57,400 bases of DNA from a virus (IMGVR_UViG_3300018432_000015:1-57400); one strand, 5' to 3'; counted from the first letter of the stretch, positions 1,648-7,871 are shown. Program-made: numbers and translations. Notes: generated from the letters alone by a model not told the origin.

Positions 1648-1852
1648 TTTGCTCGAGAATGCGGTGGACGAGCTTCGGCGACGAGGCTGGTTCACTCGCG
1701 CACAGGCGACTCAAACAGGCTGGACCGTGACACTGGAGTGCGGCGTCGATGTATGGCCAGCCAAGTATCCTCGTCCCGTGGCGCACGGGTCGACGCTGAT
1801 GGCAGCGTTCGGGCGCGCCAAGGAGCTGTCACATGCCAACCCAGAAGAATAA
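1634..1852 (+). CDS. Hypothetical protein
   Basis: AAAGGA SD; overlaps both neighbours in operon fashion. Confidence 0.6.
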   Translation: MDGINLLENAVDELRRRGWFTRAQATQTGWTVTLECGVDVWPAKYPRPVAHGSTLMAAFGRAKELSHANPEE

Positions 1853-2351
1853 GTGGAAGGAGCCGGCGGTGCCGCGCACCGTCGTCCAGATGGCGCCGGT
1901 GGACAAGAACGGCATGGTGCTCGTGATGCACCGCGGACCAAACGTTCGGTCGATCCCGAACGTCTGGTCGTTTCCGTCAGGCATGCACGAGATCGGTGAG
2001 CGAATGGAAGAGTCGCTCGAGCGCGAGCTCCGCGAGGAGTACGACTTGCAAGCTATCGACTGCGCGATGGTCGGCCAGTACGAGAACATCGCGGGCGACT
2101 TGTGGGACCAAGAGCAGTACCACTGGGTGATCTCGCTTTACGTCGCGCTCGTCGAGGACGTCAAGAAGGCTGTCAACAAGGAACCAGACAAGCACGACCG
2201 AATGGAGTTCGTGCACTACACTGACTTGGTGACGCCGGCGTTCTGGGACGCGCATCGCTTTCACAACTCGTTTCACGAAGAGATGCGCGAAGGTCGGCAC
2301 CGACTGGCGTTGGCCGCGCAGACCCTCGTCCTCAAGGAAGTGATCGAATGA
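1833..2351 (+). CDS. Nudix hydrolase (putative dNTP pyrophosphohydrolase)
   Basis: Nudix box PSGMHEIGERMEESLERELREEYDL; C-terminal EPDKH. Confidence 0.9.
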   Translation: MPTQKNKWKEPAVPRTVVQMAPVDKNGMVLVMHRGPNVRSIPNVWSFPSGMHEIGERMEESLERELREEYDLQAIDCAMVGQYENIAGDLWDQEQYHWVISLYVALVEDVKKAVNKEPDKHDRMEFVHYTDLVTPAFWDAHRFHNSFHEEMREGRHRLALAAQTLVLKEVIE

Positions 2352-3586
2352 GTGACTTGACCGCGGTGGGAGTTCACGTGTTTGCGGGTGGGTTCGTCCG
2401 AGGCGTGCTGGATGCCGGGTGGACCGTGCCGCTTCAGCTCGAGGTTCACGGCTTCGGCGTGGAGTCGACAGAAGCGATGAACGGCGTGCAAGTGATAAAC
2501 GACGAGAACGCTAACTGGCCGAACGTCGATGCCGTGATGGCTGTATCTAACCCCCGTTGTACTGCTTTCAGCACGATCACGTCGGGCGACCGATACGTGC
2601 AGGGCAACACGCACGGCGCATTCGCGAAGCAGACCTGCGACATTCAGCAGCTCTGCGAGTACTCAGCTGGGCGACACGACTTCGTCATCTGGGAGTCCGT
2701 GCAGCAAGCATACAAGGCGAGCGGGCGCGAGCTGGTCGATCACTTGATCCGCACCGTCTTCGAGCCGCGGCACTACCGCGTGGCGCACGTGTTCATCAAC
2801 GCGGCCACGTTTGGAAACTGCCAGCAGCGCAAGCGATATTTCTTTGTGGCGTATCGCGACTCGTACAAATTCAACATCCAGCCGCCGCCGCTGTCGCACT
2901 ACTATTCGGTGCTGTACGACGTCCTGTGGGCTGGGCGGCACGTCGAAGGGAGAGCAGCCAAGCTATGGGACAACACCGGGGACTACGACGCCGACTGCTA
3001 CATCGAGCTCACAAAAGACGAGCAGCTCGTCGTGCCGATGCTGCCGAACGGGTGGGACTTGCACGCGATGGCGCGGCACGCGTATCATGCGCTACCAGAG
3101 AAGTACAAAACGCTGTGGGACACGCGGGCGAGCGACCTGCCGTTCTCGTTGCATGGAATCAATCGTTTGAACTGGCTTCGACCGTGCCCAACTCTGCACT
3201 CTTCAGCCGGGCGCTTCATTCATCCATCGCAGAACCGACCTCTCACGGTGGGTGAGCTGTCGGCCATCATGGGCTGGCCGAACATTCCAGTTGGGCCGCG
3301 GCCTGTTGCGCAGATCGCGAAGGGCATCGTGCCCGCCGTCGGAAAGTGGCTGGCCGAACAAGTCGAGCTCAGCTATCGCGGCCACTGGGGCCGTGACGAC
3401 TGGGAGAGCTCGTTCAACGACGCGACGGGCACTTGGGATGGACAGGATGCCGAGGGTCAGCTAGAGAAGACCTTTGACATGACCAAGTACGTCGGCAAGC
3501 AATTTGACTTAGAACGATACGACCGAGAGGCAAGAGACTCACACTCACGATGGAGAGCGCTAAGTGAACAGCTACGACGACGTTGA
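2348..3586 (+). CDS. Divergent DNA cytosine-C5 methyltransferase-like protein
   Basis: Motifs in canonical order: I HVFAGG, IV NPRC, VI WESV, VIII QQRKR, IX RPLTVGELSAIMGWP, X QIAKGIVP. Confidence 0.85.
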   Translation: MSDLTAVGVHVFAGGFVRGVLDAGWTVPLQLEVHGFGVESTEAMNGVQVINDENANWPNVDAVMAVSNPRCTAFSTITSGDRYVQGNTHGAFAKQTCDIQQLCEYSAGRHDFVIWESVQQAYKASGRELVDHLIRTVFEPRHYRVAHVFINAATFGNCQQRKRYFFVAYRDSYKFNIQPPPLSHYYSVLYDVLWAGRHVEGRAAKLWDNTGDYDADCYIELTKDEQLVVPMLPNGWDLHAMARHAYHALPEKYKTLWDTRASDLPFSLHGINRLNWLRPCPTLHSSAGRFIHPSQNRPLTVGELSAIMGWPNIPVGPRPVAQIAKGIVPAVGKWLAEQVELSYRGHWGRDDWESSFNDATGTWDGQDAEGQLEKTFDMTKYVGKQFDLERYDREARDSHSRWRALSEQLRRR

Positions 3587-5591: not shown

Positions 5592-5914
5592 CAACTGAAC
5601 ACTTGATGACGGCCATCTGGACCGTCGTCCGCGAGGACAAGCTCGACATCCTGTGGCATGGCACGGCCAGACTCTTGGCCGCGCTGCGCCGCCGCGAGAA
5701 GTACGTCGAAGTGGCGGACTTCATCGAGGCCAAGATGGCGCGCGACGATCGGATCACCAAGAGCGCATTCATTCGCGCGCTGTTCGACTACTTCAAGGAT
5801 CAGCGAGTCATCGAGGCTCTGGACGACGCTCACAGGTGCAACCGTGAAGACGCTACCAAACGGCGGAAGGCTGGTCGAGCATCCAAGCGAATTGCCCGAC
5901 CTAAGAAACGCTGA
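5588..5914 (+). CDS. Hypothetical protein
   Basis: TTG start after AGGAGG SD; overlaps kinase stop. Confidence 0.6.
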   Translation: MTTEHLMTAIWTVVREDKLDILWHGTARLLAALRRREKYVEVADFIEAKMARDDRITKSAFIRALFDYFKDQRVIEALDDAHRCNREDATKRRKAGRASKRIARPKKR

Positions 5915-7871
5915 TGACTTGTTCGGCGACTTCGAGACGACGAGTTGCGACGACGAGCTCGACTCGCTGAACCCGTGGCATCACTGTTGGGCGCTCGGAA
6001 TAGCTGTCACGACAGACAAGCACCAGGGCGCATGGTACGTGCCGCTCCGTCACCGACTCTACGGCGACGAGCAGAACATCCCGATTGAGATAGCGCGCGA
6101 GTGGTGGGCCGACACGCTGGGCACGGCTCGGTGCTGGTCCAATCACAACGTCAAGTACGACGCGCATGTCTCGGCCAACGACATGGGCTACGTTCCTGAC
6201 TGGCCGGAACAACAGCTCTTCTGCACGGTCGCGCACTCGAAGATCATCGACAGCGATCGACACTTCCGCGGCGGGTACGGGCTCGACGCGCTCAGCTTGT
6301 CTTGGCTGGGCGAGGACATCTCGGTGTACGGAGCGCTCATTGACCGATGGCGAGCGATCGGCAAGAAAAAGAGCAAGGACTTCGGTCGCATTCACATGAA
6401 CGACTGCGCGCTCTACGCGTGCCAGGATGTCATCACCAACAAGCGACTCAAGCGGTACATTCAAGCGCAACGTCATCCGGACTGCAACAGGGTGGCCGAG
6501 ATCGAGACGGACTTGACGTCGGTGCTCTTCGAGATGGAGCGCAACGGCATGCAGGTGGACCGGCTCGAGCTGATGAAGACCGAGCTCGAGATGTCGATGC
6601 GGCTTTTGCAGATCGACGAGATCATCAAGAAGCGAGTCGGGCGCTCGGTGAACTGGTCGAGCACCGATGACTTGTACGACCTGCTCATCAATCAGTTCGG
6701 CTTGCCGATTCTCGCGTGGACTGAAGAAGACGAAGAGGGACAACCCGCCGGCAATGCGAGCTTCGACAAGCACGCGCTTGCGGAATACGCACGTCATCCG
6801 CACGCGCCGCACGACGTGGTCGCACTGATTCAAGAGGCACGCTCGGCCACGCAGACGCTCGGGTTGTTTGTTCGGCCATACCAAGAGCTGGCCGATTCGC
6901 GCGGGCGCATGCACGGAGACTTCAATCAGACCGTACGTACCGGCCGCATGTCGATGCGTCGACCGAATCTCCAGCAGTGCAGCAGTGTGGCAAAGCGACT
7001 CATTCATCCGGCGGTGGGCAACGCGTTCTTGTCGGCGGACCAAAGTCAAATCGAATTTCGAGTGATCGTTCATTACATCGAGAATCAGCGCTGCATCGAC
7101 GTCTACAATTCAGACCCGGACACTGACTTCCATCAGTGGGTGGCGGAGTCGGCGGGCATGAAGCGAAAGCCGGCCAAGACGATGAACTTCATGATGGGCT
7201 ACGGTGGCGGCAAGAAGAAAGCCGTACGCGCGATGGCCAGCAACTTGAATGTGATCGGCGGCATCGTCGGCACGATCGACCAGATGGTGGCCGATGGGCG
7301 ACTGAACGAGAGCGATCGCTTGCGCGTGTTCGACATGATGTGCGTGCAGAAGGGCGAGGAGCTGTACGATGGGTACCATCGCAATTTACCCGAGCTGAAG
7401 CCGACGTCGCGCCGAGCAGCCGCCGTCTGCGCCGAGCGCGGGTACGTACGGAACTGGCACGGACGACATCGTCACTTGCCGAAGGACCACGCGCACAAGG
7501 CGTTCAACTCTCTGTGCCAAGGCGAAGCGGCCGACATCCAGAAGGAGCGCACGGTCGCGCTCGCCCGCGCGATCGAAGGAACGGAGCTGATGCTCGTCGG
7601 CAACGTTCATGACGAGATCGTCGTCGAGGGTCCCGCTGAATTGCTGGCCGACGAGCGGACGCAGCGAGCCATCGCTTGGATTCTCGAAACGCCCGACAAG
7701 CCACTGCGAGTTCCGCTCCGCACGGGAGTCGGAGTGAGCACTCAGCATTGGAAAGAGGCCAGCACCGACGCGAAAGATGGCGGAGCGAGCCGACCGATTC
7801 AATATGATGTTGGTCAGATCGACCGCGATGAGCCGCTGAGATTTCTGAAAAATGTTCGATTGTTAACATAG
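5844..7871 (+). CDS. polA: DNA polymerase family A with 3'-5' exonuclease
   Basis: ExoI DFETT, ExoII HNVKYD, ExoIII YACQD; motif A DQSQIEFR, B KTMNFMMGYG, C VHDEI; start probably GTG 5844 rather than ATG 5658. Confidence 0.95.
   Translation: MKTLPNGGRLVEHPSELPDLRNADDLFGDFETTSCDDELDSLNPWHHCWALGIAVTTDKHQGAWYVPLRHRLYGDEQNIPIEIAREWWADTLGTARCWSNHNVKYDAHVSANDMGYVPDWPEQQLFCTVAHSKIIDSDRHFRGGYGLDALSLSWLGEDISVYGALIDRWRAIGKKKSKDFGRIHMNDCALYACQDVITNKRLKRYIQAQRHPDCNRVAEIETDLTSVLFEMERNGMQVDRLELMKTELEMSMRLLQIDEIIKKRVGRSVNWSSTDDLYDLLINQFGLPILAWTEEDEEGQPAGNASFDKHALAEYARHPHAPHDVVALIQEARSATQTLGLFVRPYQELADSRGRMHGDFNQTVRTGRMSMRRPNLQQCSSVAKRLIHPAVGNAFLSADQSQIEFRVIVHYIENQRCIDVYNSDPDTDFHQWVAESAGMKRKPAKTMNFMMGYGGGKKKAVRAMASNLNVIGGIVGTIDQMVADGRLNESDRLRVFDMMCVQKGEELYDGYHRNLPELKPTSRRAAAVCAERGYVRNWHGRHRHLPKDHAHKAFNSLCQGEAADIQKERTVALARAIEGTELMLVGNVHDEIVVEGPAELLADERTQRAIAWILETPDKPLRVPLRTGVGVSTQHWKEASTDAKDGGASRPIQYDVGQIDRDEPLRFLKNVRLLT

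Follow-up and report, generated by a model that had tools for sequence, protein, structure and literature searches.

The pre-replicative pathway of bacteriophage T4, in which gp42, the dCTPase gp56, the dNMP kinase gp1 and the alpha- and beta-glucosyltransferases participate, produces 5-hydroxymethylcytosine (hmC) at the nucleotide level, with gp42 forming 5-hydroxymethyl-dCMP (hmdCMP) and gp56, a protein of MazG-type fold, taking the dCTP-clearing and dCMP-supplying step. Equally, the M6 and ViI thymidine hypermodification clusters combine a 5-hydroxymethyl-dUMP (hmdUMP) synthase with a 5-hydroxymethyluracil (5-hmU) DNA kinase, reported to be gp54 in M6 (PMC8989533), and with amino acid:DNA transferases. 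Work of the Weigele, Peters and Ettwiller groups (PMC13326640, PMC8670742) has defined diagnostic positions in the underlying ThyA-family enzymes, whereby, in the numbering of Escherichia coli ThyA, N177D is reported to mark cytosine substrates (PMC13326640, PMC8670742), an acidic residue at L143 to accompany hydroxymethyl products and a bulky hydrophobic residue methyl products, and D169N to mark flavin-dependent 5-hydroxy-dCMP synthases (PMC13326640). On the DNA level, Arg350 of the DNA cytosine C5-carboxymethyltransferase CmoX is described to bind the carboxymethyl group of carboxy-S-adenosylmethionine (carboxy-SAM) in replacement of HhaI Asn304 (PMC12783734), and engineered Lys or Arg at the Asn304 position is reported to confer carboxymethyl transfer on methylases (PMC13288465). 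Here, positions 1833-7871 of a 57.4 kb IMG/VR virus record (IMGVR_UViG_3300018432_000015, the entire 57,400 nucleotides of which are referred to as the window) are analysed, which encode on the + strand a Nudix enzyme, a divergent DNA cytosine-C5 methyltransferase-like protein, a ThyA homologue, an HNH endonuclease, a thymidylate-kinase-like enzyme, a small open reading frame (ORF) and the family A DNA polymerase PolA. ORFs and family matches bear out the inventory of an initial annotation of this DNA, which had listed five overlapping genes, an HNH insert and one hypothetical gene; successive neighbours overlap by 4, 23, 23, 7 and 4 nt. The gene content makes it probable that a T4-style pre-replicative 5-hydroxymethyl-dC pathway operates in an uncultured tailed-phage lineage.

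The gene set recurs as a unit. When IMG/VR was searched with aligned homologues of the methylase-like protein, 32 loci were recovered, approximately 27 of them non-redundant. In 30 of the 32, the methylase-like gene is directly followed by a ThyA-like gene (in L034 it is preceded by it, and L033 comprises 4.7 kb only); a kinase match is present in 29/32 and a PolA match in 31/32 loci. The more distant phage MW202657 possesses the same set in a different gene order, namely an NTP pyrophosphatase, a ThyA-like enzyme with a PYD motif (40% identity), a kinase, a dCMP deaminase, PolA and a remote member of the methylase-like family. A description of a cassette that unites a C5-methylase-like gene with a dCMP hydroxymethylase was not found in the open-access literature searched.

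The ThyA homologue (3564-4526, + strand) is at the core of the proposed pathway. It matches PF00303 with an E-value of 6.5e-32 (111 bits versus a cut-off of 24.3), and the residues E58, Y94, R126, C146, R166 and S167 of the ThyA-type superfamily are invariant in an alignment of the window enzyme with five relatives and four reference enzymes from public records (alignment A4). At the positions equivalent to L143, D169 and N177, E. coli ThyA (product dTMP) shows L/D/N in this alignment, T4 gp42 (hmdCMP) D/D/D, RB69 gp48 (5-hydroxy-dCMP) E/N/D and M6 gp58 (hmdUMP) D/D/N, while the window enzyme and its five relatives, with hmdCMP as the predicted product, display D/D/D. In the window enzyme these residues are D162, D188 and D196, the latter as part of the motif GVPYD, and all three are preserved in the window and in 26/26 related enzymes of a wider alignment. 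Thus, Asp occupies the N177 position as in dCMP-specific ThyA enzymes, and the acidic residue at L143 together with the retained folate-binding Asp169 are the features of a pyrimidine hydroxymethylase. Among solved structures, the closest match is MilA (E 3e-29), which hydroxymethylates CMP in mildiomycin synthesis and is reported to have Lys/Ala in place of the deoxy-type Arg/Ser (PMC5175136); the window enzyme carries the deoxy-type residues R143 and S186. A folate-dependent dCMP 5-hydroxymethylase is therefore the best prediction for the window enzyme from its sequence. A scan of viral contigs with the single ThyA-homologue protein retrieved no relative.

The same three residues bear on two other products. 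As an XP12-type dCMP methylase, the ThyA homologue would deliver pool-derived 5-methylcytosine (5mC) to the DNA, with the methylase-like enzyme topping up residual cytosines, and this scheme can draw on the fact that Asp at N177 is common to dCMP methylases, that Asp-177 enzymes of other metaviromes are predicted to make 5-methyl-dCMP (bioRxiv 2024.12.05.627091) and that N177D is stated to switch thymidylate synthase to 5-methyl-dCMP (PMC8670742). It is nevertheless considered unlikely, as the L143 position is Asp in 27/27 family members, a residue tied to hydroxymethyl products according to PMC13326640, as the known hydroxymethylase M6 gp58 likewise has Asp at this position and as 5mC would offer no acceptor to a T4-like DNA alpha-glucosyltransferase (AGT). 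An RB69-type flavin-dependent synthase, on the other hand, would form 5-hydroxy-dCMP, on which a glycosyltransferase would build an ether-linked sugar; the combination of Asp at N177 with an acidic L143 counterpart and a neighbouring glycosyltransferase is equally shown by the RB69 and DLP3 systems. The diagnostic D169N is, however, missing, with Asp in the window and all 26 relatives (27/27) and Asn in the aligned RB69 gp48, which renders this route highly improbable. In sum, the three-residue signature points to a hydroxymethyl product and disfavours both the methyl and the 5-hydroxy product. The initial annotation had already noted Asp in place of the dUMP-specifying Asn, an observation upheld by the alignment of D196 with N177 and by its conservation in 26/26 relatives, and had left the product as either hm5dCMP or m5dCMP; the first of these options is now favoured and the second would recede.

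The genes around the ThyA homologue fit the preceding and subsequent steps. The Nudix (MutT-like) NTP pyrophosphohydrolase (1833-2351, + strand; PF00293, E 1.9e-12), a candidate dCTPase, has an intact Nudix box with REx2EE, and its nearest solved chains, NUDX1, NUDT15, MutT, NudI and CTP pyrophosphohydrolase, are (d)NTP pyrophosphatases. In 29/32 loci the slot directly upstream of the methylase-like gene harbours a MazG/PRA-PH-type NTP pyrophosphohydrolase instead, as concluded from Pfam in 8/8 loci tested and from a profile search for the remainder, with a Nudix gene in this slot only in the window and the relative L015; the other two loci, L004 and L033, are truncated. The occupation of one slot by two unrelated NTP pyrophosphatase folds provides good indirect support for a dCTP-clearing and dCMP-supplying step like that of T4 gp56, and the lineage would accordingly exhibit a non-orthologous swap of the putative dCTP-clearing enzyme between Nudix and MazG types. 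In L008 (1727-2236), the MazG-type gene is present as two adjoining fragments, which suggests a frameshift or an assembly error. The kinase (5013-5591, + strand; 192 aa) is thymidylate-kinase-like by its match to phrog_761 (E 2.9e-10), and a profile of 15 family kinases retrieved SPbeta YorR (2axp; E 5.8e-13) followed by thymidylate kinases; the match to Pfam Thymidylate_kin, 22.7 bits, lies under the cut-off of 27. The P-loop GPDTVGKTT and the DR[FY] motif, with D61 and R62 invariant in alignment A2, are those of the thymidylate kinase or dNMP kinase fold. Because the likeness to M6 gp54 is limited to the P-loop region (hhalign probability 41%, 51 columns), a role as dNMP kinase is the better reading than one as 5-hmU DNA kinase. 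Family A DNA polymerase PolA (5844-7871, + strand, start inferred; PF00476, E 5e-41; phrog_17, E 6e-96) closes the stretch. A ThyX flavin-dependent thymidylate synthase is encoded downstream at 12902-13930 (+ strand; PF02511, E 1.2e-35; likely start at approximately 13055), and its translation shows the RHR...S..R motif.

Taken together, the Nudix enzyme would hydrolyse dCTP to dCMP, as a MazG-type enzyme would do in most relatives, upon which the ThyA homologue would use methylene-tetrahydrofolate to form hmdCMP and the thymidylate-kinase-like enzyme would phosphorylate this product; host enzymes would complete the triphosphate, phage PolA would incorporate the hydroxymethylated nucleotide, dTMP would be supplied by ThyX and, in the DNA of the window phage, a T4-AGT-like glycosyltransferase would probably add sugar to hmC. 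Several of these roles had been anticipated in the initial annotation: removal of dCTP by the Nudix enzyme agrees with the MazG-type occupant of the slot in related loci, the dNMP kinase with the phrog_761, YorR and thymidylate kinase matches, and the separate ThyX has been located as described and is found equally in 4/5 complete relatives.

The glycosyltransferase had been missed in that annotation and is the sole sign of true hypermodification. Its ORF (14193-15443, + strand) directly follows the ThyX gene, 6.3 kb downstream of the end of the stretch, and was not matched by Pfam hmmscan and PHROGs nor by a profile search of PDB sequences. An ESM Atlas feature search connected it to PF11440 DNA alpha-glucosyltransferase clusters (score 0.98, TM 0.72), and its AlphaFold model (predicted local distance difference test, pLDDT, of 93) has a GT-B (GT4-like) fold, for which Foldseek placed T4 AGT chains at ranks 3, 5, 7, 8, 9 and 13 in the PDB, including the AGT-DNA complexes 1y8z, 1ya6, 1y6f and 1xv5 at TMq 0.55-0.60. 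Matches in BFVD include phage glycosyltransferases, two of which are annotated as DNA alpha-glucosyltransferase. The protein is thus a candidate hmC-DNA glycosyltransferase. As to further decoration genes, two unrelated proteins of about 415 aa without family match reside inside the cassette of L032 (5272-6510) and of MW202657 (10214-11458) and are candidates for additional modification enzymes; the 413 aa ORF of L032 showed no relation to the glycosyltransferase upon comparison, and the 415 aa protein of MW202657, situated between the ThyA-like gene and the kinase gene, is homologous neither to the methylase-like protein nor to the glycosyltransferase. L027 displays, instead of a glycosyltransferase-type decoration gene, a radical SAM/SPASM gene (5208-6203) between the helicase gene and the MazG gene of the cassette, which may represent another DNA-decorating activity.

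Distinct from these components is the methylase-like protein (2348-3586, + strand; 412 aa), whose conventional features are readily recognized. PF00145 is matched with an E-value of 2.2e-9 over residues 110-312 only, leaving residues 1-109 unaligned, hhalign against a canonical phage C5-methyltransferase gave a probability of 98.8% over 307 columns, and the AlphaFold model (pLDDT 89) adopts the DNA C5-methyltransferase fold with M.HaeIII as a Foldseek match at TMt 0.73-0.75 and DNMT1 also matched. The catalytic motifs IV (Cys), VI (Glu), VIII (QxRxR) and IX are all in place, and C71, E116, Q159, R161 and R163 each occur in 120/120 family members. In contrast, the canonical cofactor contacts, namely motif I FxGxGG, the Asp of motif III, the Pro-Cys of motif IV and the Asn of motif X, are all altered. 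Motif I reads HVFAGG, with His10 for Phe in 113/113 and Phe12 for Gly in 114/114 non-gap rows; the motif III position is Asn in 100/120 and Asp in 2/120 members; Pro-Cys is replaced by Arg-Cys in 119/120, so that motif IV reads NPRC; and the position of the motif X Asn, which in the canonical enzyme belongs to GNAVPP, is Lys325 in 119/119 non-gap rows. ENV is equally replaced by ESV in 120/120 members, and even the remotest family members retain the same hallmark residues. One search yielded at least 285 homologues, and a family member was not found in the cultured phages of the collection. By sequence, the protein is not a standard SAM (S-adenosylmethionine) enzyme. Because the cofactor pocket is re-tooled, we read it as a DNA cytosine-C5 enzyme other than a plain SAM methylase, in which the residues that attack C6 of cytosine covalently are retained.

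A different view would see two unrelated anti-restriction layers, in which partial replacement by hmC is accompanied by an ordinary SAM-dependent, site-specific C5 methylase that acts on the remaining cytosines. The fold and motifs IV, VI, VIII and IX are indeed as in DNA C5-methyltransferases, engineered Lys variants at the motif X position are reported still to use SAM (PMC13288465), and the avoidance of palindromes described below suggests that some cytosine sites are exposed. Against this arrangement stand the four non-canonical cofactor-contact positions, three of them invariantly so (H10, F12, K325) with motif III as the fourth, and the target-recognition region, which is conserved to the same degree as the catalytic motifs. 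Furthermore, unlike the usually variable phage methylases, the protein shows a conservation above that of the ThyA homologue in 23/26 loci, above that of the kinase in 23/24 and above that of PolA in 19/26. We regard two independent layers as possible, if doubtful. On the preferred reading, the methylase-like protein behaves like a core pathway enzyme and not like a swappable anti-restriction methylase, as far as these conservation patterns can tell.

What the re-tooled pocket might accommodate can be considered in the light of CmoX. Lys325 aligns with CmoX Arg350, and given this cationic residue the family may work in a CmoX-like manner by analogy. A member of the CmoX type in the strict sense it is not, with NPRC instead of SPPC, Lys instead of Arg350 and neither the adenine-stacking Phe nor the Asp retained; also, a CmoA gene (TIGR00740) was not matched in the window and five complete relatives. 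Tentatively, the family could represent a novel type of C5 enzyme for cytosine in DNA, which arose in obligate partnership with the nucleotide-level hmC pathway. In one version, it may be a natural Lys-type relative of CmoX that modifies cytosines escaping replacement by means of an anionic SAM analogue, be it carboxy-SAM from the host or a different one. In a bolder version, the catalytic Cys may attack C6 of hmC in DNA, leading to exchange or removal of the hydroxymethyl group, whereby the leaving group may be dealt with by Arg70 and Lys325 and the incoming one be accommodated in the re-tooled pocket; with ordinary C5-methylases, such exchange or removal is described as a laboratory side reaction only (PMC7176277). 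Of the further families sought, dCMP deaminase and carbamoyltransferase were not matched in the window, nor was TET/JBP, a weak negative as the control genomes gave no match either.

The base composition of the window has a bearing on how completely cytosine might be replaced. Among the 3100 hexamers with sufficient expected copies, the most depleted are CGGCCG (16 versus 62.5 expected) and TGGCCA (19 versus 50.1 expected), as judged for one genome against a Markov expectation, with CGGCCA/TGGCCG 1.7-fold enriched; RGATCY occurs in 0 copies, that is, AGATCT, GGATCC and AGATCC/GGATCT are all absent. The pattern looks like restriction-site avoidance. Such avoidance fits a partial replacement of cytosine, upon which substrate would remain for the C5 enzyme. 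The initial annotation had perceived a paradox in a DNA-level C5 enzyme beside a nucleotide-level one; this paradox stands, and the sequential or partial modification offered as its solution stays conjecture. Otherwise, the nucleotide-level branch of that interpretation has held, being now sharpened to hydroxymethyl and extended by the glycosyltransferase.

Several observations weigh against a T4-style hmC pathway and need to be set beside the evidence in its favour. If every cytosine were hmC, the C5 enzyme would be left without an obvious substrate, and the site avoidance suggests that the protection of cytosines in this DNA is, or has at times been, incomplete. The L143 rule is called a correlation by its own authors (PMC13326640), and the metavirome Asp-177 enzymes with a predicted methyl product, cited above, pull in the same direction. 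The fold of the glycosyltransferase is matched by many GT4 enzymes about as well as by T4 AGT, and its profile was matched in only 1/5 complete relatives, so sugar decoration seems variable across the lineage. Finally, the kinase gene of the window lacks a canonical start codon and its expression may be poor.

The latter feature is connected to the HNH homing-endonuclease gene (4504-5019, + strand; phrog_59, E 5e-15; C-terminal HTH, HTH_7). The kinase frame is open from 5010, with no ATG, GTG or TTG ahead of the P-loop; the longest ORF in 5093-5578 was dismissed as the kinase gene, being an off-frame artefact. In most relatives the kinase begins with M-[LI]-[IV]-[IV]-E-G, to which I-L-I-I-E-G corresponds in the window, and ATT at 5013 stands at the ancestral start position behind a strong AAGGAAGGG ribosome-binding site. 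Alignment with the uninterrupted locus L003 shows that the HNH gene starts at the ancestral kinase ATG TTG and ends 7 nt inside the present kinase frame. Its GC content at third codon positions (GC3) is 0.46 as compared to 0.71-0.83 in the neighbouring genes, and it is missing at this spot in most relatives. From its position at the ancestral ATG TTG and its divergent GC3, the HNH gene is a foreign mobile insert that captured the kinase start codon. The kinase has been left with ATT TTA (5013-5018) behind the ribosome-binding site, which would be new, and both junctions of the HNH gene resemble a diverged duplication of the kinase translation-initiation region. That the HNH gene might reside within a group I intron was discarded, as Rfam gave no match and the L003 alignment indicates a free-standing insertion at kinase codons 2/3; equally discarded was an intein, since a stop codon terminates the HNH frame and the kinase is read in a different one.

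The remaining genes and the genome record can be described briefly. Between the kinase gene and PolA, a small ORF of 108 aa (5588-5914, + strand) has a coding-like GC3 of 0.75 and no match in family searches. GTG at 5844, which follows AGGTG and precedes the DFETT exonuclease motif, is the likely PolA start; a start at 5658 was rejected, as the text there is off-frame. ThyX has a Cys-rich insertion (CPNC...CEWC) inside the Thy1 domain, and its ORF is open for approximately 50 codons upstream of the likely start; together with an ATP-dependent ligase and a SprT-like protein it lies within 6 kb after the stretch. A small zinc-ribbon ORF of approximately 70 aa is seen in or beside the cassette in the window (1429-1647) and in L007 (6338-6553), L012 (6837-7046), L016 (6308-6517) and L019 (6858-7091), in some relatives with the MazG gene on one side and the methylase-like gene on the other. 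Nearly all genes of the window are on the + strand with a GC3 of approximately 0.75, and Rfam and tRNA scans of the window gave no match. The sequence upstream of the stretch codes for the C-terminal portion of an MCM-type primase-helicase, whose N-terminal portion is found at the opposite window end; 3-1418, with the MCM P-loop, and 55983-57400, with the DnaG zinc finger, seemingly belong to one protein. This split implies that the record probably comprises almost the entire genome in circularly permuted form; its completeness is approximately 91% as estimated by CheckV. When the nucleotide sequence of the region was compared with cultured phages, the sole match was 176 bases in PolA.

If the proposed pathway holds true, T4-type hmC biosynthesis, sugar-decorated in some members, would exist in a widespread uncultured lineage unrelated to T4. 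The methylase-like family, recognizable by the signature HVFAGG, NPRC, WESV and motif X AKG, is the most useful lead, as its connection to carboxymethylcytosine chemistry, a recent discovery, can be tested and as it could give rise to a new DNA modification or to a tool enzyme for the labelling of cytosine or hmC.

In comparison with known systems, the logic and the parts list of the T4 hmC pathway match the window, with an NTP pyrophosphatase, a ThyA homologue of the D/D/D type, a dNMP-kinase-type enzyme and a GT-B fold that matches AGT. The 57 kb genome of the window, however, is not related to that of T4 and encodes PolA and an MCM-type helicase; its pyrophosphatase is a Nudix enzyme and its kinase thymidylate-kinase-like, and its ThyA homologue is nearer to MilA than to gp42, with T4 dCMP hydroxymethylase not among the 60 best PDB matches. 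With MilA (PDB 5b6d, 5jnh), the enzyme shares Asp at N177 and L143 and part of the C-terminal extension, whereas Lys133 and Ala176 of MilA favour ribo-CMP and Arg143 and Ser186 of the window enzyme are of the deoxy type. The M6 and ViI thymidine hypermodification clusters resemble the window in genome size, in the replication module and in a ThyA-family hydroxymethylase with Asp at L143 that adjoins a P-loop kinase, but M6 gp58 has Asn at N177 and is of the uracil type, and M6 gp54 and the window kinase have only the P-loop in common. CmoX (PDB 8yf3) and the engineered variants M.MpeI N374K and M.CviPI Y205K share with the methylase-like family the C5-methyltransferase fold and a cationic residue where HhaI has Asn304; CmoX, though, is described to keep SPPC and, for the adenine ring, Phe25, Phe48 and Asp69 (PMC12783734), where the window family has NPRC, His10, Phe12 and mostly Asn, and by its motifs the family would fail the SPPC-plus-R350 filter of that study. 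The core C5-methylase-like gene has no T4 counterpart. The locus is thus a variant of the T4 paradigm in which the methylase-like partner is the novel element.

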